The translations under genes and the position numbers were made by a program. From contig OY759316.1 in NCBI GenBank assembly GCA_963662275.1, positions 3,008,001 to 3,072,000 on the forward strand: a stretch of DNA of 64,000 nt, given 5' to 3'. Shown here piece by piece: positions 13,114 through 62,323 of this stretch. The notes under the pieces are model-generated. The model was not told the origin of the DNA, did not search any database, and was given only the letters and a program-made list of their open reading frames with translations. The stretch comes from Candidatus Cloacimonadales bacterium. Lineage in GTDB: Bacteria; Cloacimonadota; Cloacimonadia; Cloacimonadales; DAONDQ01. Within the stretch, counting starts at the first letter, position 1, and every line of letters starts with the position of its first letter.

Positions 13114-13179
13114 GAAACAGGAATGAAACAGGTATGAAATTGGTATGAACCTGGATTGAACTTTGTATGCTCTTTGTGG
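13114..13179 (+). repeat. Degenerate 11-bp tandem repeat (GAAACAGGTAT, ~6 copies)
   Basis: gaaacaggaat gaaacaggtat gaaattggtat gaacctggatt gaactttgtat. Confidence 0.6.
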
Positions 13180-18554: not shown

Positions 18555-19129
18555 TCGTAGGGGTCCGCGTCAGCAGACCCGTTATCAATTAAAGCTCGTT
18601 AGGTCTGAATCGTAGGGGTCAGCGTCAGCAGACCCGTTATCAATTAAAGCTCGTTAGGTCTGAATCGTAGGGGTCCGCGTCAGCAGACCCGTTAAAAATT
18701 AAAGCTCGTAGGTCTGAATCGTAGGGGTCAGCGTCAGCAGACCCGTTATCAATTAAAGCTCGTTAGGTCTGAATCGTAGGGGTCCGCGTCAGCAGACCCG
18801 TTATCAATTAAAGCTCGTTAGGTCTGAATCGTAGGGGTCAGCGTCAGCAGACCCGTTATCAATTAAAGCTCGTTAGGTCTGAATCGTAGGGGTCCGTGTC
18901 AGCAGACCCGTTATCAATTAAAGCTCGTTAGGTCTGAATCGTAGGGGTCAGCGTCAGCAGACCCGTTATCAATTAAAGCTCGTTAGGTCTGAATCGTAGG
19001 GGTCAGCGTCAGCAGACCCGTTATCAATTAAAGCTCGTTAGGTCTGAATCGTAGGGGGCTGCGTCAGAAGACCCGATTTCTTTTACCATTTGCACTCTTT
19101 TAACGGGTCTGCTGACGCGGACCCCTACG
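18555..19129 (+). repeat. Tandem array of GTAG-type REP units (55 bp x9 plus a partial 10th) followed by one inverted REP
   Basis: Unit TCGTAGGGGTC(C/A)GCGTCAGCAGACCCGTTATCAATTAAAGCTCGTTAGGTCTGAA; inverted copy at 19101-19129. Confidence 0.95.
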
Positions 19130-19156
19130 CTGCAACAACTTTTATGGAGGGTTGAC

Positions 19157-19684
19157 GTGAGTTATGATTATTATAGTAATCGACATTCAGTTCGTTTACG
19201 AGGTTATGATTATGCTCAAAATGGTGCATATTATGTGACTATTTGTGCATATGAGAAGCAAAAACTTTTTGGTGAAATCCGCAACAACATTATGAATGTT
19301 AACGATCTTGGGGCTATATTAGAAGAAGAATGGTACAAAGTAGCTCAAATAAGAAATTATATGATTTTGGATGATTACATCGTGATGCCTAATCACTTTC
19401 ATGGAATCTTTTTCATTAGCAATGATAGTAATATCCAACTGCCTTATCATGAAGATGACAAACCTATACTATATCAAAATTCATTGGGTTCTATAATTGG
19501 AGGTTTTAAAGCGGCAGTTACCAGACATTGTAGAATCATATTAAATAGTCCAAAACAAGAGATCTGGCAACGTAGTTTCTATGATCATATTATACGTAAT
19601 GAAGATGATTTGAACCATTGCAGAGAATATATTATACAAAATCCAGCCAATTGGAATAAAGACGAAATGTTCATGAAATCGTAG
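19157..19684 (+). CDS. REP-associated tyrosine transposase (RAYT, Y1 HUH family)
   Basis: R.SVRL.GYDY, YYVTIC, VMPNHFHGI (HUH), WQRSFYDHIIR, YI..NP; flanked by REPs. Confidence 0.9.
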   Translation: MSYDYYSNRHSVRLRGYDYAQNGAYYVTICAYEKQKLFGEIRNNIMNVNDLGAILEEEWYKVAQIRNYMILDDYIVMPNHFHGIFFISNDSNIQLPYHEDDKPILYQNSLGSIIGGFKAAVTRHCRIILNSPKQEIWQRSFYDHIIRNEDDLNHCREYIIQNPANWNKDEMFMKS

Positions 19685-19760
19685 GGGTTCGCATCAGCAG
19701 ACCCGTTCCACGAGTATAAATGGCAAAAGAAATCGGGTCTGCTGACGCGGACTCCTACGA
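19679..19760. repeat. Inverted REP doublet downstream of the RAYT
   Basis: TCGTAGGGGTTCGCATCAGCAGACCCG ... CGGGTCTGCTGACGCGGACTCCTACGA. Confidence 0.9.
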
Positions 19761-21888: not shown

Positions 21889-23297
21889 TTACTTTCCTTT
21901 TTTATATCATCTTCGGTAAAACCGAGCTTGCGCATGTGCTTTGCAGAAAGGTGTTTCTCAAGTTCTGTCTTCGACATCACACCCTTTTCAATGACCAAAT
22001 CGCTGAATGAACGATTCGTTTTCAAAGCTTCATGAAGTATCTCTTCCACTTTGTGATAACCGATAATGGGAACAAGCACTGTAGCTAAAGTCTTACTATT
22101 CAATACCAGTTCCTTGCACTTTTCTTCATTGGCAGTCATACCTTTCAGGCATTTCTCACGAAGAATGGTAGTGGCATTCACCAATAGATGAAGTGTCTCC
22201 AACATGGTAAAAGCAATTAACGGAAAATACTGGTTCAGTTCAAGCTGCCCCATTCCGCAGGCTATTGTTATGAGGTTATCATTGGAAATGACACGTAATG
22301 CCACCTGCCCTATCGCTTCCGGTATCACAGGATTGATCTTACCCGGCATGATGGTGGAACCTGCCTGCATTTCAGGAAGACGAATCTCTGAAATACCTCC
22401 ATCCGGTCCCATGTTCATCAGTCGCAAGTCATTTGATATCTTCAATAGGTTGGAAGCATAAGTTTTAAGCATACCTGAGATTTCCACAAAAGGGTCGAGA
22501 TTCTGGGTGGCATCGACGAGGTTTTCACTGCGGGAAATACTCAATCCAGTTAAGGAACGAAGCACTTCTCCCACTTTAAAGATATATTCTCTCGGTGCAC
22601 CGAGACCAGTACCGATCGCAGTTCCACCGAGATTGATGACTTTTATCCTTTCCCTGCATTTGAAGATACGCCAGCGGTCACGAGCAATGGCTTCCGCATA
22701 AGCACCGAATTCCATGCCAAGTGTTAAGGGAACTGCATCCATCAGCTCTGTGCGTCCCAACTTCACGACATGTCCAAATTCCTGTTCCTTAGCCTGGAAC
22801 TCTTCCTGTAACCAGGATATCTCTCTTTCCAAATCTTTAAGATAGAATAAGACAGCCACTTTCAAAGCTGTTGGATAGACATCATTCGTTGATTGGTGCA
22901 TATTCACATGTTCAAGAGGAAGCACAGGATCATTGGAACCAAATGTATCATCCAATTTGCGATCTGCAATAAAGGCGATGACTTCATTAAAATTCATGTT
23001 TGTGGAAGTACCTGCACCACCCTGGAAAGGATCGACCACAAACTGGTCATGATGCTCACCTTCGATGATTTCATCACATACTTGGATGATGGCTCTTGCA
23101 GTTTTTTCTTCGAGATAGCCCAGGTCAGAGTTCACCTGCGCTGCTGCTTTTTTCACATAGGCAAAAGACTTTATGAAATATGGTTGCATCTTATAGCCTG
23201 ATAATGGGAAGTTGTTGATCGCACGCTGGGTTTGCACACCCCACGCTGCATCTTCCATGATCTCGATCGTTCCCAATCCGTCTGTTTCTAATCTCAT
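21885..23297 (-). CDS. aspA: Aspartate ammonia-lyase (fumarate lyase family)
   Basis: QGGAGTSTNMN, QSTNDVYPTA, KLGRT, GSTIMPGKINPV. Confidence 0.85.
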   Translation of the reverse strand: MRLETDGLGTIEIMEDAAWGVQTQRAINNFPLSGYKMQPYFIKSFAYVKKAAAQVNSDLGYLEEKTARAIIQVCDEIIEGEHHDQFVVDPFQGGAGTSTNMNFNEVIAFIADRKLDDTFGSNDPVLPLEHVNMHQSTNDVYPTALKVAVLFYLKDLEREISWLQEEFQAKEQEFGHVVKLGRTELMDAVPLTLGMEFGAYAEAIARDRWRIFKCRERIKVINLGGTAIGTGLGAPREYIFKVGEVLRSLTGLSISRSENLVDATQNLDPFVEISGMLKTYASNLLKISNDLRLMNMGPDGGISEIRLPEMQAGSTIMPGKINPVIPEAIGQVALRVISNDNLITIACGMGQLELNQYFPLIAFTMLETLHLLVNATTILREKCLKGMTANEEKCKELVLNSKTLATVLVPIIGYHKVEEILHEALKTNRSFSDLVIEKGVMSKTELEKHLSAKHMRKLGFTEDDIKKESK

Positions 23298-24478
23298 CCC
23301 TTCCTCCGTAACAGTCTGTCTTTCCGTTTATTCCAATCTATCAGCACTTTCTCATTTTCATTTGAATCATTTTCCAGATAATATAATGCCTTTTCCACCC
23401 ATTTCAAAGCTTCACCGGCATTCTTTCCCGTGTGTTCAGCGAATATCGCCAATTCGCGAATAGCAAACAACTCACCTTTCTCGGCAGCTTCTTCCCATAG
23501 TTTCAGGGCTTTTTCCAACTGCTGTTCCTTTTTGAAAAGAAAGGAAAGCTGCTTCAGTACAGCGGTATTATCAGTGGAAAGCATAGTCTCGTAGATGTCA
23601 ATCGCCGTCTGTGTCTCCCCCATTTCCTCATAAAGACGACCAACAGCAAAAAGATCAAACTCTGTATGAGTTTGACGTGAATGTGGCACTTCCAGTTCAT
23701 CAGAAATGAGATGCAGCAGCACGGGCATACTGAGGATATCACTGCGGTTATGATTAAAGATATTCACGATCTCTTCGGCATTGTGCGTATCCAGGTAATG
23801 GAAATATACTTGTGGTATATGACCACCCCATATATCCTGGGAAGAGTCGCGCATACTACCTAAAATGTAGTACTCGAGACTTTCCAGGGCACAGCTTTCC
23901 AACTGGTGTTTCCACAACCTTCTTGCTAACGGAAGTAAATCTAGATGCGGAATCCGCTTCCAGGAGAAGTCCACTCCCTGCAGGATGCATCGTGTTTCCA
24001 AAAGATTCGTATCGAATGACTTACCATTGAAGGAAACAATGATTTGAAACTTCCTTGCCCTTTCCACAACCTGTTCCAGCATACCTTTTTCATATCCAAG
24101 ATTGGAAAGAAAATACTGCTCGATAACTACTGAGTTCTCTCGAATGAAACCCATGCCCACCATGAAGACATACGTACCTGTACCCCCTGAAAGACCAGTG
24201 GTCTCAGTATCGAGAAAGAGCATCTCTTCGGGTGTGAAATCTATATCCTTGAGCTTAGCCCATTTCCGTATCAGATCATGAACGGCAGGACTTTGCACTT
24301 TATGCTTACCAACCTCAAAGCCAAAAGGAAAGGAAATCGATGCCTTGAAGACTGAACCATATTGAGTTTCTATCAGTTCACCTTCCATCATATCCCAGAT
24401 ATCATTGCCCGTTTCCTTGGGCTTTTGTACCTTCTGCTCTTTCGGATAGCTGCGTTTCAGGATATCAAGATCATTCAT
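23294..24478 (-). CDS. YprB/MrfB-like DEDD exonuclease (RNase_H_2) with TPR-like C-terminus
   Basis: FLDTETTGLSGG.GT, SFNGKSFD, HLDLL..ARRLW, HNRSDI; downstream of a YprA-like helicase. Confidence 0.85.
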   Translation of the reverse strand: MNDLDILKRSYPKEQKVQKPKETGNDIWDMMEGELIETQYGSVFKASISFPFGFEVGKHKVQSPAVHDLIRKWAKLKDIDFTPEEMLFLDTETTGLSGGTGTYVFMVGMGFIRENSVVIEQYFLSNLGYEKGMLEQVVERARKFQIIVSFNGKSFDTNLLETRCILQGVDFSWKRIPHLDLLPLARRLWKHQLESCALESLEYYILGSMRDSSQDIWGGHIPQVYFHYLDTHNAEEIVNIFNHNRSDILSMPVLLHLISDELEVPHSRQTHTEFDLFAVGRLYEEMGETQTAIDIYETMLSTDNTAVLKQLSFLFKKEQQLEKALKLWEEAAEKGELFAIRELAIFAEHTGKNAGEALKWVEKALYYLENDSNENEKVLIDWNKRKDRLLRRKG

Positions 24479-24492
24479 ATTTCAATTGCTCC

Positions 24493-24540
24493 TATTCCTC
24501 CCTTATGCTAAGGGAGGTGGCATTTATGCCGGAGAGTTAG
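24493..24540 (+). repeat. REP-like hairpin copy downstream of the DUF559 gene
   Basis: TATTCCTCCCTTATGCTAAGGGAGGTGGCATTTATGCCGGAGAGTTAG; 47/48 identical to 25214-25261. Confidence 0.9.
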
Positions 24541-24566
24541 ATATCTATACGTTTTAACAAATATCT

Positions 24567-24953
24567 TTATCTCTCTTCGGTATTCATCACATTTTCTGGT
24601 TCTTCAATAACACATCGAATATATTCCATAACACCATCTATATTCGTGAGCACATTATAATTTGTTAACCTTAATACTCGTATATCATGCTCTTGAAAAA
24701 ATAATGTTCTTTTCCGATCGTATTCTGCATTCTCTTTTTCAAAGTGCTGACTTCCATCAACTTCTATTATTAACAATTTATCCGGACAATAAAAATCAGC
24801 GATATAGTTACCGAAACCGCTCTGTCTATAGAATTTTAGCCCCAACAATCTTTTATTTCTCAATCGTGACCATAGCTTGCGCTCAGCTACAGTTTGCTCT
24901 TTCCGGAGTTCAAGCCTTTTGTCTTTGGTTGAGTACAAATTAATTAATTTCAT
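24567..24953 (-). CDS. DUF559 (Vsr-like, PD-(D/E)XK) endonuclease-domain protein
   Basis: LR..QT.AE..LW..LR, KF.RQ, YIADFYC, IIEVDG..H, YD..RT, VLRL.N. Confidence 0.9.
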   Translation of the reverse strand: MKLINLYSTKDKRLELRKEQTVAERKLWSRLRNKRLLGLKFYRQSGFGNYIADFYCPDKLLIIEVDGSQHFEKENAEYDRKRTLFFQEHDIRVLRLTNYNVLTNIDGVMEYIRCVIEEPENVMNTEER

Positions 24954-24979
24954 TTACTCCCTCCTATTATTTTAACCTC

Positions 24980-25261
24980 CTAACTCTCCACCCTGAAGGG
25001 TACCTCCCTTAGCATAAGGGAGGTGGCTTTTGTACCCGTCTTATTCCTCCCTTATGCTAAGGGAGGTGGCATTTTGCTCCGTCCAATTCCTCCCTTATGC
25101 TATGGGAGGTGGCATTTTGCTCCGTCCAATTCCTCCCTTATGCTATGGGAGGTGGCATTTTGCTCCGTCCAATTCCTCCCTTATGCTATGGGAGGTGGCA
25201 TTTTGCTCCGTCTTATTCCTCCCTTATGCTAAGGGAGGTGGCATTGATGCCGGAGAGTTAG
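24980..25261 (+). repeat. One inverted copy plus five tandem 43-bp palindromic units upstream of the DUF559 gene
   Basis: Core CCTCCCTTATGCTA(A/T)GGGAGG in units at 25043, 25086, 25129, 25172, 25215; inverted copy at 24980-25023. Confidence 0.95.
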
Positions 25262-28124
25262 TTCTTCTTTTATCAACAAAATACTCCAAAAGCGCCAATG
25301 TCTCCGCCTTCGCCCCTTCCCCATTCTCTGCGACCGGACCGACACAGGCGGGACAGCCATCCTTACACCCACAGGTCAGAATGACTTTCATGGATTCATT
25401 CATTATGGTATTATGAATTTCATACATCTTCTCACTTAAACCAATACCACCCGGTACCTGGTCATATAAGATAACCGCAGGCTTTCCATTTGCCACAGAA
25501 GCATTGGAACTGCCCATCACACCAATATCCTTGATATCGCACATCAGATACAATGGAGCCAGATTACCAAGTACATAGGCAAGACCAGCCATACCACTTT
25601 GGATGCGGGCTTGCTGCTCTGCCAACTTGTGACAGGAAGAGCAGAGGGTTGTCAAGTTCTTAAGTGCGTTGGCTTCATCCCGATTCATGAACTTGCGGAA
25701 AGGCACTATATGATGCACATCATGCGGTCTGTCAGTTTCAGCGATATGGCAATGCGTGCATTTGAATTCATCCCGTGTCCTTGCAGCCTGGCTGATTTCC
25801 TTCCACTTCGGACCATAGGAATTCGGATTGTTCTTCCACTTCTCGGCTTTCTCTAATTCATCCACTACCTGGTCTTCGATTTCAAACCAATAACCATATG
25901 TGATCAGCTCTGTCTTGGGCAGATCAAGCTCACCATAGCCCAATATCTCCTGGGAATACCATTTCACTTTCTTGAAGCCAGTCACCTGGTTAGTTACCAG
26001 CAGTTTTCCATAATGAATGGAACCACCCATCACAGGCATCAATTTATCTTCATGAATCAATTCAATTTCTGTGTTGCTCATCGGCTGTGTGTAGAATCCT
26101 TCCGAGAAAGGTCTCATCTGCACAGTATGTGTCTTTGTATCAATGCTTTCCACGAGGTATGATTCCCCATCCTGAAGATATACAGCCTGGGGATGCACAA
26201 GCCAATACACGCTTTTATCATCTACTTCCCCGATCACGTTGCCGTTCACGATGAGATTATATCGATCCAAACCGGCATTACGCAGCGATATCTCATCCGC
26301 TGGATAATCCTCTGATTTCCAGAAATACTGTTCATTGGATTCGATCGCTTTCCCCAATTGCTGAAGAAAATCGAGATAATCCTTCAATTCATCGATGGGA
26401 AGAGCACCGAATGTCTCATTCTTGGAGAAAGGCTTCTCGAATAAGGCACACTGCAAATGCTGCATGAGAATGAACGGATTGTTCGGATTCAACAGCGCCA
26501 TTTCCGGTGAACCACCGAAGAGAAAGTCAGGATGCTGAAGAATATACTGGTCTAATAGGCTGGCAGAAGCGATCATGAATGCAACGGATGACTCCGCTTT
26601 GCGTCCTGCTCTTCCCGCTTGCTGACGTGTAGCAGCGATCGTACCGGGATAACTGCACAGCACCACCGCATCCAGGCTTCCGATATCGATACCCAGTTCC
26701 AGGGCATTGGTGGAAACAACCGTCGAGATCGTTCCTTCCCTGAATCCCTTTTCAATCGCTCTTCTATCAGTTGGAAGATACCCACTGCGATAGCCTTGAA
26801 TCTTTTCTTTATGCTCTGAAGCATTCTGTAAATAGGTAAGAATTAGCTCAATCGCCTTCCGTGCCTGGGCAAAGACAAGCGTCTGGAATCCGCATGGCAT
26901 AATGTTTTCTGTAACTCTCACCGTTTCCATGATCACACTTCTTCTAATTCCCAAATCCTTATTCACGAATGGCGGATTATAGAGCAGGAAATGCCTCTCT
27001 CCCTGGGGTGAACCATCCTGCTCGATAAGGTCGAAGTCTTCTTCCAGTAAAGTCGAAATGAATTCTCTTGTATGTGAAAGAGTAGCTGAAGTGAGAATAT
27101 ATTGAGGATAAGCGCCATAGAAATTTGCTATTCTTTTGAAACGCCTAAGCACATTGGCAAAATGAGAACCGAACACTCCGCGATACACATGCACTTCATC
27201 GATGATGACAAACTTCAGGTTGCGAAAAAAATCCACCCACTGCGCATGATGCGGTAAAATGCCCATACTCAGCATATCAGGATTGGAGAAGATGAAGTTA
27301 GCACTGCTGCGTATCTGCTTCCGTCTTTCAGTAGGTGTATCACCGTCATACATCCCACAAGTGGGAAGTGCGAAGTTCGAAGTCCGAAGTGCGAAGTAGG
27401 GATTTACGGAAGGAAATCCATCATTGGAAGTTCGAAGTGAAGAATCGGAAGATTCAGAATATCCACCTTTGGGAAAGGTCTCCGATAATTTCCCCTTGGG
27501 AAGGGCTACCGAAGACAATCCCCCCTTGGGAAGGGCTACCGAAGACAATCCCCCCTTGGGAAGGGCTACCGAAGACAATCCCCCCTTGGGAAGGGCTACC
27601 GAAGACAATCCCCCCTTGGGAAGGGCTACCGAAGACAATCCCCCCTTGGGAAGGGGGGTAGGGGGGTCTATTCTTGGGGAAGTGCGAAGTCCGAAGTGCG
27701 AAGTCCGAACGGCAGAATCAGATGTATTATCACTTTGTTGATAAACCAAATTCAAAAACGCACTCAACTTCCCATACTGATCTTGTGCCAATGCTTTCGT
27801 GGGAAAAAGGAATAGCCCTTTCGCTTTGGGATTGGATTGTAAAGTCTGAAGTATCGGAAGCTGGTAGCAAAGGCTCTTTCCACTGGCAACACCTGTCGAA
27901 ATGACGATATTCCTGCCTTTCATGACAGCTTCATACGCCATCACTTGGTGACTGTAAATGCTGTACACACCGGATTTCAGCAGTGCATGCCGCACATTTT
28001 GATGCAAATCGTCCGGCAGATCTGCAAACACTGCTTCCTTGGCTTTATCGATATGATGCACAACGAAGCAATCCCTGAAATCAGGATCCGCCTTCATCGC
28101 CTCGATCAGATGTTCTACTTTCAT
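25224..28124 (-). CDS. YprA/MrfA/Hrq1-like DEAH helicase with C-terminal DUF1998 zinc domain, an internal HNH domain and an in-frame repeat insertion
   Basis: GVASGKS, PTKALAQDQ, YDGDT, IDEVH, SAT, TNALELGIDIG, QQAGRAGR, YD.VPGGIG, C.C..GCPAC. Confidence 0.9.
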   Translation of the reverse strand: MKVEHLIEAMKADPDFRDCFVVHHIDKAKEAVFADLPDDLHQNVRHALLKSGVYSIYSHQVMAYEAVMKGRNIVISTGVASGKSLCYQLPILQTLQSNPKAKGLFLFPTKALAQDQYGKLSAFLNLVYQQSDNTSDSAVRTSHFGLRTSPRIDPPTPLPKGGLSSVALPKGGLSSVALPKGGLSSVALPKGGLSSVALPKGGLSSVALPKGKLSETFPKGGYSESSDSSLRTSNDGFPSVNPYFALRTSNFALPTCGMYDGDTPTERRKQIRSSANFIFSNPDMLSMGILPHHAQWVDFFRNLKFVIIDEVHVYRGVFGSHFANVLRRFKRIANFYGAYPQYILTSATLSHTREFISTLLEEDFDLIEQDGSPQGERHFLLYNPPFVNKDLGIRRSVIMETVRVTENIMPCGFQTLVFAQARKAIELILTYLQNASEHKEKIQGYRSGYLPTDRRAIEKGFREGTISTVVSTNALELGIDIGSLDAVVLCSYPGTIAATRQQAGRAGRKAESSVAFMIASASLLDQYILQHPDFLFGGSPEMALLNPNNPFILMQHLQCALFEKPFSKNETFGALPIDELKDYLDFLQQLGKAIESNEQYFWKSEDYPADEISLRNAGLDRYNLIVNGNVIGEVDDKSVYWLVHPQAVYLQDGESYLVESIDTKTHTVQMRPFSEGFYTQPMSNTEIELIHEDKLMPVMGGSIHYGKLLVTNQVTGFKKVKWYSQEILGYGELDLPKTELITYGYWFEIEDQVVDELEKAEKWKNNPNSYGPKWKEISQAARTRDEFKCTHCHIAETDRPHDVHHIVPFRKFMNRDEANALKNLTTLCSSCHKLAEQQARIQSGMAGLAYVLGNLAPLYLMCDIKDIGVMGSSNASVANGKPAVILYDQVPGGIGLSEKMYEIHNTIMNESMKVILTCGCKDGCPACVGPVAENGEGAKAETLALLEYFVDKRRTNSPASMPPPLA
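27360..27715. repeat. In-frame insertion of heptamer repeats (CGAAGT[T/C/G]) flanking 30-bp hairpin tandem repeats
   Basis: GAAGACAATCCCCCCTTGGGAAGGGCTACC at 27511, 27541, 27571, 27601 and partial at 27631; degenerate copies at 27451 and 27481. Confidence 0.95.
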
Positions 28125-34701: not shown

Positions 34702-34970
34702 ATCACCGGATTAAAATCCAGTGTTAATATCTTTCTTCCCGATGGGAATCAGAAAAGAAATCCACCCTCATTCCTAAAGTGCATTACGGTATCAATACGG
34801 TAGCATTACGGTAGCATTACGGTAAAAAACCGTATTAGTACCGTAATTGTATAGTAATTGTACCACAGTATATTTAAGATTTAAGAAGGAGGATTGAAGA
34901 TTTTGCAGAGAAGAGAAGAAATGCCCCCCCTATACTTCGACTTCGCTCCCCTTCTCAAGGGGGGATGAAA
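34702..34970 (-). repeat. Composite dispersed intergenic element, inverted homolog of 660-1291
   Basis: GCATTACGGTA 11-mers, CCCCTTCTCAAGGGG hairpin, CACCGGATTAAAATCCAGTG hairpin. Confidence 0.75.
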
Positions 34971-54409: not shown

Positions 54410-55511
54410 TGAACCGCCGACTTCAGGGGTGACACTTTTACCGGAACGCTGTTTTCAAACGGCTATGCTCTGCAACATCGAACTTCACACTTCGTACTTC
54501 CATAGAACGCACGGGGTGCGTTTTGCCACCTCACGGGGTGAGGCGTTCCTGCTCTGCGAATTCATACTTCCATTGATCCATCTGCTCTACTAATTCGTAA
54601 TTCCCCCTCCTCCAATCTCGTAGAGATGAAATCCGATAGCTAACGTGTAAGCCTCACGAAACCAATCACCAAATCCATCCGAATCTCGTAGAGATGGCAG
54701 ATCATAGCCTGTGGTGGAACGAAGTGGAACCACAGGAAACACGCAATACACCCCCATTTCAAACCCCTTCAAGGGTGACACTTTTACCGGAACGCTGTTT
54801 TCAAACGGCTATGCTCTGCAACATCGACATTGGATGAACTGCTTTAGCCGTTCATTAGGGTTTCAACCCAATCTGTAGCAACTACTTCAGTCGTTGGATG
54901 AACTGCCGTAGTTCGCGACCTCCGGGCGTGATATATGGCTGCCGGGAAGTCAGCCACTACTGATATAAGGCTGCCGGGACGTCAGCCCCTACTGTTAGAT
55001 TTTTACCATTGAAATGGATTTGGTTTGATGAATCAAACCGGTACAACGAATAAATTCGTTGCTACTGCTCTCCGGAACTTCTGACTTCGAACCTCGCACC
55101 TCACACTTATAAAATGAGCTGGGTTTCATCTAGGGATCATCTAGGGATCATCTAGGCATCATCTAGACTTTCTTAGATTTTCTTAGGAAGATGCTTTATT
55201 CATATCCTTTTTCAACCTTTTTGTATTAAAAGATATATCCATATGGCTCATGAACCGCTCCTAAGTCAGATAGTAACCAGGTACTAGTCAGATCCTAACC
55301 AGCTCCTAAAGTATTTTAGAGTTTGAATGGCTTCTGATTAGTAGGTTTTTAGTTTCACATATGTTTGTCTTTCAAGAGACATTTGAAGAAGGTAAGAAGG
55401 ACAGAAGGACAGGAGGAGAAGAGAAGAAGACCCCCCTACCCCCCTTCCCAAGGGGGGATGAAGATTTGCTGCCGTAAATCCCTACCATCTTCCATCTACA
55501 ATCTTAAATTT
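54410..55511. repeat. Non-coding patchwork of REP-like hairpins, a 55-bp duplication, heptamers and 11-mers
   Basis: 54427-54481 = 54773-54827; GTAG/CTAC-tagged hairpins; TCATCTAGGGA x4; hairpin 55428-55459. Confidence 0.7.
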
Positions 55512-61732: not shown

Positions 61733-62255
61733 GCGGAAGCGGACAGCATACAGGGTACAGCGTACAGCGGACAGCGGACAGGGCAGAGAAACAGAAGGGA
61801 ATAGCGAATAGCGGAAGCGGACAGCATACAGGGTACAGCGGACAGCGGACAGCGGACAGGGCAGAGAAACAGAAGGGAATAGCGAATAGCGGAAGCGGAC
61901 AGCATACAGGGTACAGCGGACAGCGGACAGCGGACAGGGCAGAGAAACAGAAGGGAATAGCGAATAGCGGAAGCGGACAGCATACAGGGTACAGCGGACA
62001 GCGGACAGCGGACAGGGCAGAGAAACAGAAGGGAATAGCGAATAGCGGAAGCGGACAGCATACAGGGTACAGCGGACAGCGGACAGCGGACAGGGCAGAG
62101 AAACAGAAGGGAATAGCAAAGCTGCAATCGATTTAACCCGGAGCTACATCTCACTTCTGCTCTGAACTATTCCCTGTATGCTGTCCGCTGTACCCTGTAT
62201 GCTGTCCGCTTCCTGTCTGCTGTACCCTGTTCGCTGTCCGCTGTACCCTGTACGC
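61733..62255. repeat. 78-bp tandem array x5, built from heptamers, followed by inverted partial copies
   Basis: Units start at 61733, 61811, 61889, 61967, 62045; internal ACAGCGG heptamers; complementary CCCTGTATGCTGTCCGCT block at 62172-62255. Confidence 0.95.
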
Positions 62256-62323
62256 TTTTTTCATTATTTTCTTTACAGCAAAAACTATGATAATATATGT
62301 AACGCTGGTATATGGGAGGTCTT

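Follow-up and report, generated by a model that had tools for sequence, protein, structure and literature searches.

Among the described systems closest to the locus reported here is REP/BIME/REPIN-RAYT, where a single or low-copy gene has a short palindromic repeat on both sides in inverted orientation, and further copies of the repeat are scattered over the genome singly, in inverted doublets, and in tandem arrays. A comparable arrangement was found at positions 24490 to 25261 of a 64,000-nt stretch of Candidatus Cloacimonadales DNA (contig OY759316.1; the whole stretch is called the window), which belongs to a genome held in a single 4.38-Mb contig (G000). The locus is a small cassette in which the gene for a DUF559 nuclease is bounded by two inverted three-arm DNA repeats. 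DUF559 is among the commonest nuclease domains of "unknown function."

The earlier literature on the BoxC, PIT, and intrastrand triplex motif (TM) repeats is said to include Bergler 1992 and Hoyne & Maher 2000. As set out by Holder et al. 2015 (NAR, PMC4666352), these repeats have been known since the 1990s, and their origin, partner gene, and function are not established. The E. coli consensus given there (TMECO) is CCCTCNCCC-N3-6-GGGNGAGGG-N3-GGGNGAGGG, with 23 copies in K-12, always intergenic, and the TM motif was reported in more than 260 genomes, including those of E. coli and cyanobacteria. TM sites were tied to local genome instability with no transposase or integrase nearby, and PIT elements had neither promoter nor terminator activity in earlier work cited in that paper. 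The words "endonuclease" and "DUF559" are absent from its main text, which names no partner gene.

On the enzyme side, Steczkiewicz et al. 2012 (PMC3424549) described a group of Vsr and DUF559/EDxHD proteins that includes 3HRL and the homing endonuclease I-Bth0305I (3R3P), the latter sharing a common fold with DUF559 (PMC3424549, PMC9403480). In the survey of Milman et al. 2023 (PMC9881135), "DUF559 domain-containing protein" was enriched among predicted inversion targets with an odds ratio of 14.3, which fits with the presence of flanking inverted repeats.

Structure of the cassette

The cassette comprises the following features.

24490..24540, + strand: full element downstream of the DUF559 gene, with a 9-bp hairpin (24497-24517), the mini-hairpin GGCA/TGCC (24519-24530), and the third arm GGAGAGTTAG (24531-24540) facing the gene
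24567..24953, - strand: DUF559 gene (Vsr-like PD-(D/E)XK fold; Pfam PF04480), 128 aa
24980..25023, - strand: full element upstream of the gene, inverted, with the third arm CTAACTCTCC (+ strand) facing the gene, the mini-hairpin ACCC/GGGT, and the hairpin at 25003-25023
25039..25210, + strand: four partial 43-bp tandem units, each of a hairpin plus the spacer GGCATTTTGCTCCGTC with no third arm (period 43, 94% matches)
25211..25261, + strand: second full element, 49/51 nt identical to 24490-24540, overlapping the helicase stop codon (25224-25226)

The protein matched the Pfam DUF559 profile (PF04480) with an E value of 3.1e-31 and 107.9 bits against a cutoff of 20.6, residues 11 to 116 aligning to profile positions 5 to 108 of 109. 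Its sequence also matched that of an "endonuclease-like protein" of solved structure (PDB 3HRL; E 1.8e-19) in an alignment that retained "iaDF" and "liiEvDGsqH" versus "livEaDGgqH." The motif D53 ... E64-x-D66-G-x-x-H70, numbered on the translation, is that of the Vsr/EDxHD group. The profile and 3HRL matches agree with the first-pass annotation of this DNA, which had called the enzyme a Vsr-like PD-(D/E)XK nuclease and not an HUH transposase. The score against the NCBIfam equivalog PRK09767 was 68.4 bits versus a cutoff of 218, and the window protein is thus not an equivalog of PRK09767. Unlike Vsr itself, the protein gave no Vsr match (PF03852) among Pfam models at an E value of ≤0.001, where only DUF559 and a weak MTES_1575 match were seen. 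No methyltransferase was found among the nine neighboring open reading frames (ORFs) scanned, which also sets the locus apart from Vsr, and a partnership with a Dcm-type cytosine methyltransferase was accordingly not encountered among them.

The repeat element of ~50 nt combines a C/G hairpin of 9 bp with a mini-hairpin of 4 bp and a third arm rich in G. Folding was modeled with Watson-Crick hairpins only. As single-stranded DNA, a full copy formed the 9-bp hairpin CCTCCCTTA/TAAGGGAGG and the 4-bp mini-hairpin, and left GGAGAGTTAG as an unpaired G-rich tail; the full copies reached -11.5 kcal/mol with z values of -4.3 to -4.8. The copy at 24490-24540, which lies 11 nt from the yprB-like start codon, gave -11.5 kcal/mol (z -4.27), and the inverted copy at 24980-25023 folded as two hairpins (-11.4 kcal/mol). 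The inverted copy keeps the mini-hairpin stem with changed letters, having ACCC/GGGT where both direct copies have GGCA/TGCC.

The geometry described in the first-pass annotation was reproduced almost throughout. The gene is bracketed by an inverted repeat pair (arms 24497-24540 and 24980-25023; 44 nt, 84% complementary), and five tandem 43-bp copies lie upstream, with unit starts at 25039, 25082, 25125, 25168, and 25211. For this array, TRF returned 25003-25245, with a period of 43, 5.7 copies, and 94% matches. The outermost copies are direct repeats, 24490-24540 and 25211-25261 differing at 2 of 51 nt (48 nt with 1 mismatch when counted from 24493). The helicase stop codon TAA (25226-25224) falls inside the hairpin of the last unit; this element encodes the final helicase residues, and the C terminus of the helicase is altered by it. 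A 21-nt core with ≤3 mismatches gave 11 matches at 7 sites versus 0 in 100 shuffles.

In gene orientation, the order is the helicase end, a full copy with its arm outward, four partial units, a full copy with its arm toward the gene, DUF559, a full copy with its arm toward the gene, and the yprB-like start. The elements at 25211-25261 and 24980-25023 together form a hairpin-to-hairpin doublet with the third arms outward.

Class of the repeat element

The unit had earlier been taken for a plain CCCTT-N3-5-AAGGG hairpin. It proved instead to have three arms, namely a C-arm, a G-arm, and a second G-rich arm in mirrored order, and on its sequence it is assigned as a variant of the BoxC/PIT/TM class rather than as TMECO itself, the TMECO consensus pattern having 0 matches in the window. 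The trait that defines TM repeats, a further G-rich arm that mirrors the G-arm, tends to hold for the repeats beside DUF559 genes. Among 152 informative hairpins from the 80 loci described below, mirror order was the better fit in 68 and direct order in 14, with a tie in 70. T frequently replaces A in the third arm, which is permitted by the purine-motif rule (G on G, A or T on A). For the window variant, the third arm GGAGAGTT matched the mirror of AAGGGAGG at 7/8 positions under this rule, against 5 for the plain mirror and 6 for direct order (orthologous copy in L001).

The elements beside DUF559 genes resemble BoxC/PIT/TM repeats in that a C-rich arm is followed by its G-rich complement and, after a short second loop (commonly TTA or TA), by another G-rich arm in mirrored order. 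They are likewise multicopy, mostly intergenic, and highly uniform per genome, with no transposase nearby. The window variant differs from TMECO in its arms (CCTCCCTTA/TAAGGGAGG) and in its second loop, where 13 nt forming the mini-hairpin stand in place of a short loop.

Two DUF559 subfamilies and two repeat families in one genome

Two DUF559 subfamilies coexist in this genome, and each goes with a separate dispersed repeat family, of 34 and 116 copies, respectively; both families fit the mirror-order rule for the third arm well. The window element is assigned by its sequence to the first family (fam1), which takes the form of a hairpin such as CCCCTCCC-ATTTGTAA-AGGGAGGGG followed by TTA and then GGGGAGAG(C/T)TAGTTCTG. 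The fam1 third arm, GGAGAG(C/T)TAG, occurred 49 times in the genome versus 10.7 expected, and the 34 copies are those GGAGAGYTAG sites with a G-arm just upstream. By tblastn, two closer DUF559 paralogues were detected, each 62% identical to the window protein, and that at 2244236-2244604 is a pseudogene with an in-frame TAA. The paralogue at G000:C1:1437008-1437376 has the main fam1 variant at its flanks. Each of the three subfamily-1 genes is bracketed by fam1 elements in inverted orientation, their third arms turned toward the gene.

The second family (fam2) has the form CCCCCCTTG(A/G)GAAGGGGGG-TA-GGGGGGTC, and its 116 copies are within 4 mismatches of one 29-mer. It pairs with a DUF559 subfamily other than that of the window gene, consisting of seven tandem genes at 3581049-3587738 (tblastn) whose products are 37-41% identical to the window protein. 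Each of these genes is flanked by inverted fam2 elements, with partial tandem units of ~57 bp alongside. The hairpins at ~664, 27640, 34948, and 55440 of the window, previously regarded as kin of the cassette repeat, belong to fam2, with full copies, counted among the 116, at 27640 and 55440 and degenerate or interrupted ones at 664 and 34948.

The copies of the two families are arranged as follows.

fam1: 25 solo, 1 outward doublet, 0 same-strand pairs, and 4 inward pairs, of which 3/4 enclose DUF559
fam2: 48 solo, 29 outward doublets (7 inside the gene array), 5 same-strand pairs, and 6 inward pairs, of which 6/6 enclose DUF559

A DUF559 gene is therefore enclosed by 9 of the 10 inward-facing pairs in this genome. 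The tenth (fam1, G000:C1:2413566-2414212) has no ORF inside, and its right member is degenerate. Gene-less copies of the cassette variants are many and comprise solo elements, outward doublets, and arrays.

The region G000:C1:3579500-3589500 contains the seven near-identical subfamily-2 cassettes at a spacing of ~590 bp, split by an IS21-type insertion (ORFs of 528 aa and 248 aa), and two of the seven tandem copies carry stops or are truncated. Genome-wide, 6 of the 116 fam2 elements fall within open frames (414-2389 codons) that continue for ≥80 codons to either side of the repeat, so that fam2 elements can stand in frame within genes. Runs of heptamers and undecamers often adjoin the tails of fam1 and fam2 elements elsewhere in the genome.

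Association across genomes

For a wider comparison, 80 DUF559 loci from many phyla were picked by protein peptide patterns only (541 of 600 candidate stretches encoded a relative). The C/G hairpins occurred at 3.84 (upstream) and 3.03 (downstream) per kb within 200 bp of the DUF559 gene, versus 0-0.21 per kb at more than 600 bp away, and the repeat density at the gene ends was ~18-40 times that farther off. Hairpin enrichment beside DUF559 homologues, a check suggested by the first-pass annotation, was thus found, with at least one hairpin within 200 bp in 55 of the 72 loci having enough flank and hairpins on both sides in 24. Three-arm motifs numbered 160 in 38.9 kb near the genes versus 55 in 245 kb farther away. 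An inward-facing three-arm copy was present in 55/80 loci, on both sides in 28/80. For 20 DUF559 loci from relatives of the same order, the corresponding counts were 14 and 10.

The gene-flanking variant was a dispersed family in 3/3 other genomes tested, with reversed-pattern controls at 0.

G041: 1.0 Mb, 67 repeat copies (including 28 identical copies), 3 DUF559 genes
G042: 2.1 Mb, 42 repeat copies, 4 DUF559 genes
G043: 3.6 Mb, 16 repeat copies, 2 DUF559 genes

The specificity of the pairing was supported by a comparison made within genomes, so that the host was held constant. In nine genomes with at least two cassettes, the match between a cassette's own upstream and downstream flanks exceeded every cross-cassette match for 18 of 21 cassettes (median score 16 versus 8). 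As to the check on protein/repeat co-variation suggested earlier, cassettes thus mostly carried their own repeat variant on both sides, and a Mantel test was not significant, as described below.

The distribution of DUF559 within the order is patchy, 21/41 genomes being positive. Eight of the 41 relatives had at least 30 generic three-arm (TM) hits, and all eight were DUF559 positive (G000, G001, G020, G021, G025, G026, G039, and G033, the last with a noisy control of 99 hits versus 45). The 20 DUF559-negative genomes had ≤18 such hits each. The count over the 41 relatives is descriptive only, as kin are not independent, and it speaks against a repeat family distributed independently of DUF559, since the repeat-rich relatives were all DUF559 positive. 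Over the 41 relatives, a narrower pattern (CCYCCC-N4-9-GGGRGG-N1-6-GGRG) gave hits chiefly in G000 and G001 and failed to detect the variants that other DUF559-positive relatives carry; it was superseded by inspection of the 20 DUF559 loci and by the broader pattern. Outside the genus, the closest proteins belonged to many phyla and had similar identities (41-53%).

A match to the TMECO consensus occurs in E. coli K-12 between the DUF559 gene ycjD and fabI, 170 bp downstream of ycjD, an adjacency whose chance was estimated at ~1% given the 23 genome copies.

Two further observations were made on individual DUF559 loci. At L114:5206-5480 (E. coli K-12), a second, partial copy of the ycjD 3' end (GGAGACGGTGCTGGAGAATATTC...) is followed by degenerate repeat pieces and then by the full TMECO match; the remnant looks as if it were a decayed second cassette end. 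Strong DUF559 matches were also seen inside open frames of 668, 726, and 1312 aa in relatives (for example, G013:C37:20499-20780, G014:C1:3432942-3433259, and G026:C1:2834141-2834449), where DUF559 could be fused to larger genes or be an in-frame insert in them.

Insertion history and selection

The helicase stop and the yprB-like start overlap or are ≤3 nt apart, with no DUF559 gene between them, in 11/11 relatives of other families in which the two genes are adjacent. The empty yprA-yprB site that the first-pass annotation had suggested looking for was thus observed in all of them. In the same-genus genome (G001), the DUF559 gene occupies the same site in the same order (yprB-like, DUF559, helicase). 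The 43-bp array and the helicase-side copy are missing there, 43 nt standing in place of the array at 25039-25210, and the helicase terminates at a stop codon of its own, 14 nt short of the repeat. G001 carries a different extra repeat copy on the yprB side.

These comparisons show the cassette to be an insertion made in the genus ancestor, exactly at the overlapping stop/start junction of the mrfA(yprA)-mrfB(yprB)-like operon and in operon orientation, and kept since. They likewise show that in G000, one end element was copied later to the helicase side together with the 43-bp tandem array. The 51-nt direct repeats were considered as a target-site duplication, and this was ruled out because G001 has no helicase-side copy and a different extra copy on the yprB side; the 51-nt duplication is therefore later and local to G000.

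The stretch was present in 5 of 8 listed public runs (2 studies), none of the five being an RNA run. In contigs from 4 public runs (2 studies), which drop rare variants, there was no joint skipping the cassette, no other letters, and no cassette-less or rearranged form, and X1 and X3 reproduced the structure in pieces broken at repeats.

Nonsynonymous (dN) and synonymous (dS) divergence between G000 and G001 was as follows (pS, proportion of synonymous differences).

DUF559: 86% aa and 80% nt identity, dN 0.089, dS 1.48, dN/dS 0.06
Helicase: 81% aa and 74% nt identity, dN 0.138, dS and dN/dS not computable (pS 0.77)
YprB-like protein: 73% aa and 69% nt identity, dN 0.199, dS and dN/dS not computable (pS 0.81)

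The window DUF559 gene is under purifying selection. The flanking repeats were identical between the two genomes at 55/56 nt on the 24490-24540 side and at 43/44 core nt of 24980-25023, and because they are near invariant while synonymous sites are near saturation, they are deduced to be under constraint of their own.

This constraint bears on a model in which the TM repeats spread independently of DUF559, by replication slippage, recombination, or another transposase, and DUF559 is a host enzyme that processes or repairs their structures and is linked to them via permissive spots or regulation. Strong purifying selection on the window gene is what a host enzyme would show, some DUF559-positive genomes have no detectable TM families, TM sites are tied to local instability with no transposase or integrase nearby (PMC4666352), and the best-known protein related by fold, Vsr, acts as a nickase in repair (PMC3424549). 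The model does not predict the near-invariant flanking copies beside near-saturated synonymous sites, nor the strict inverted bracketing (9/10 inward pairs), nor cassette-specific variants within one genome, and it leaves unexplained why a whole unit of gene and repeats was inserted at a tight operon junction. We regard it as improbable.

The junction bears on the proposal that the elements are ordinary operon regulatory hairpins (terminators, attenuators, or mRNA stabilizers) and that their adjacency to DUF559 is coincidental. They do occupy intergenic positions in a co-directional operon, and the G-arm with AGGAG, which sits 9-10 nt upstream of the yprB-like start, could be a ribosome-binding region. 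No T-run follows the hairpins, however, the relatives lack any intergenic spacer at the junction, and the same three-arm architecture stands beside DUF559 genes in many phyla. PIT elements, moreover, were without promoter or terminator activity in work cited in PMC4666352. This proposal is considered very improbable.

Comparison with known systems and proposed mechanism

The window itself holds a RAYT-like locus with which the cassette can be compared.

19157-19684: RAYT-like gene, with its own array of 9.5 x 55 bp upstream and inverted copies on both sides (locus 18555-19760)

This ORF matched NCBIfam REP_Tyr_transpos (E 1.9e-17; 63.5 bits, under the cutoff of 80) and, only weakly, Pfam Y1_Tnp (E 0.031). 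As noted earlier from the sequence, the DUF559 layout mirrors that of this locus, both having an array, an inverted copy, the gene, and further copies. The repeat of the RAYT-like gene is a third family, unrelated to fam1 and fam2. Like a RAYT gene, the DUF559 gene is kept at a fixed locus under purifying selection. The enzyme differs in being a Vsr-like PD-(D/E)XK nuclease and not an HUH/Y1 tyrosine transposase, and the mobilization chemistry cannot match, since no covalent tyrosine intermediate is expected. The repeat differs as well: REP is a simple imperfect palindrome with a GTAG-type head, whereas the DUF559-linked repeat is three-armed.

The cassette can also be compared with miniature inverted-repeat transposable elements (MITEs) and the autonomous terminal-inverted-repeat transposons that go with them, since few gene-bearing units with terminal inverted repeats are accompanied by many short gene-less derivatives. 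Unlike in MITEs, most units without a gene are single ends, or else doublets with the opposite polarity (third arms outward), no DDE transposase is present, and no target-site duplication was identified. The homing endonuclease I-Bth0305I reportedly has an extra DNA-binding domain, which the window protein lacks. The setting of the window gene is not that of an intron, an intein, or a phage, and the empty sites are in distant relatives only.

These comparisons are relevant to the view of the cassette as purely selfish DNA that moves or homes. The gene and its two end repeats would be an autonomous element of rare movement, the nuclease acting on its own ends or on the allelic empty site in the manner of a free-standing homing endonuclease, and solos, doublets, and arrays would be decayed, abortive, or recombined ends and not copies mobilized in trans. 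A distinct end variant for each cassette (18/21), the patchy distribution in the order (21/41 genomes), the nearest proteins outside the genus coming from many phyla at 41-53% identity, the pseudogene copies (the in-frame TAA at 2244236-2244604 and the stops in two tandem copies), and the fold held in common with the EDxHD homing endonuclease I-Bth0305I (PMC3424549, PMC9403480) are all consistent with it. The solos and doublets exceed the genes at least 10-fold and are very uniform (116 fam2 copies; 28 identical copies in G041), which is hard to obtain by decay of a few cassettes. In addition, the usual gene-less form is an outward doublet (22 outside the gene array), which is not a cassette remnant, and since the species split the window gene has stayed at a single site with a dN/dS of 0.06, which suits a domesticated gene better than a homing gene that cycles. 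A purely selfish unit is credible and yet unlikely.

As an association, the partnership of DUF559 genes and three-arm repeats is well supported. The further step to a RAYT-like partnership is made by analogy, and we lean slightly toward it. The nuclease would recognize its own flanking repeat, either as a folded hairpin or triplex or as duplex DNA, and would nick it or the DNA next to it. Recombination or repair synthesis set off by this nick would then maintain, amplify, and occasionally disperse the copies, giving arrays, hairpin-to-hairpin doublets, and solos. DUF559 would thus be to TM repeats as RAYT is to REP/REPIN repeats, with another class of enzyme. In this genome, the window copy would serve a small local variant, and the paralogous DUF559 genes would serve the two large dispersed families.

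A number of observations weigh against a partnership of this kind. The window variant is confined to its locus, with 7 hairpin copies there and none elsewhere at ≤1 mismatch, the exact 21-nt cassette core being found nowhere else in the 4.38-Mb genome; no dispersal was seen for the window gene. Of the RAYT analogy proposed in the first-pass annotation, it is therefore the association that stood (flank enrichment, empty sites, co-distribution, and the 18/21 own flanks) and the dispersal of the window variant that did not. Cassette-specific flanks are expected of any mobile unit with its own ends and do not prove action in trans on solo copies. To our knowledge, a lone PD-(D/E)XK nuclease has no strand-transfer chemistry. 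No target-site duplication was found, and no precise filled/empty boundary can be defined for the solo elements because the only close relative is ~75% identical in DNA. Across phyla, the orientation bias is moderate, with 96 inward and 64 outward copies, and 25/80 loci are without an inward copy by the criteria used. Within the order, 3/20 DUF559 loci have no three-arm repeat, five DUF559-positive relatives (G002, G010, G013, G014, and G019) gave 0 generic-pattern hits, and the DUF559-negative G005 and G031 gave 18 and 13, respectively. The E. coli TMECO copy is on one side of ycjD only, with its third arm pointing away. Finally, DUF559 protein identity did not correlate significantly with repeat identity in a crude Mantel test on 18 cassettes (rho 0.11, reached by 266/2000 permutations); this test was weakened by a faulty automatic choice of repeats, a partial unit having been taken, for example, for the window cassette.

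In a more general and more tentative form, which we do not hold to be the likelier outcome, DUF559 proteins might be the missing partner enzymes of BoxC/PIT/TM repeats across bacteria. They would then be structure-specific Vsr-like nickases that recognize the three-arm DNA of their own repeat variant, folded as a hairpin or an intramolecular triplex, and drive its copying, a second repeat-enzyme symbiosis beside REP-RAYT with a mechanism of its own.

Neighboring genes and other repeats in the window

The genes on either side of the cassette are as follows.

25224..28124, - strand: MrfA/YprA-like DEAD-box helicase, 966 aa, upstream neighbor in the same operon orientation (DEAD, Helicase_C, MZB ["MrfA Zn-binding"], WHD_HRQ1, and HNH domains)
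23294..24478, - strand: YprB-like protein, 394 aa, downstream neighbor (RNase_H_2 and TPR domains)

The Pfam domains of all three ORFs bear out the original placement of a 128-aa DUF559 gene between yprA- and yprB-like genes. The helicase matched TIGR03817 (E 3e-180), under that model's cutoff, and has an HNH endonuclease domain (Pfam E 6.7e-07) at residues 789-834, right before the MZB domain. At window positions 27359-27709, it carries an in-frame insert of ~105 aa between the first helicase motifs and the DEAD motif, in which a fam2 element is combined with a perfect tandem repeat of 5.5 units of 30 bp (27492-27655) and with runs of the heptamer ACTTCG(C/G). The G001 helicase is without those 105 aa, and the same spot holds in-frame sequence resembling the RAYT-associated repeat of the window. 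Short tandem arrays of 7-11-nt units were also observed at 1068-1112, 13114-13149, 34781-34824, 55126-55166, and within 61733-62256 of the window, along with an array of 78 bp x 4.9 at 61733-62117.

Significance

The repeats and the protein family are each known, and the DUF559-TM pairing was not found in the literature searched, Holder et al. being considered by its main text. The nearest published hint is the enrichment of DUF559 among predicted inversion targets (PMC9881135). What this locus adds is the pairing of two subfamilies with two repeat families in one complete genome, a series of empty sites, an estimate of selection, and a flank test controlled for host.

A specific and conserved DUF559-TM pairing makes both the origin of the repeats and the function of DUF559 directly testable. 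Its recurrence across many bacteria points to DUF559 as an enzyme that may spread TM-type repeats. If DUF559 proteins are the partner enzymes of these repeats, they could seed arrays, doublets, and even in-frame insertions in genes such as the adjacent helicase. Confirmation would establish a second class of domesticated repeat-spreading enzyme besides the RAYTs, would explain in-frame repeat insertions in genes, and would possibly reveal nucleases that read the shape of DNA (hairpin or triplex) and not its sequence alone.

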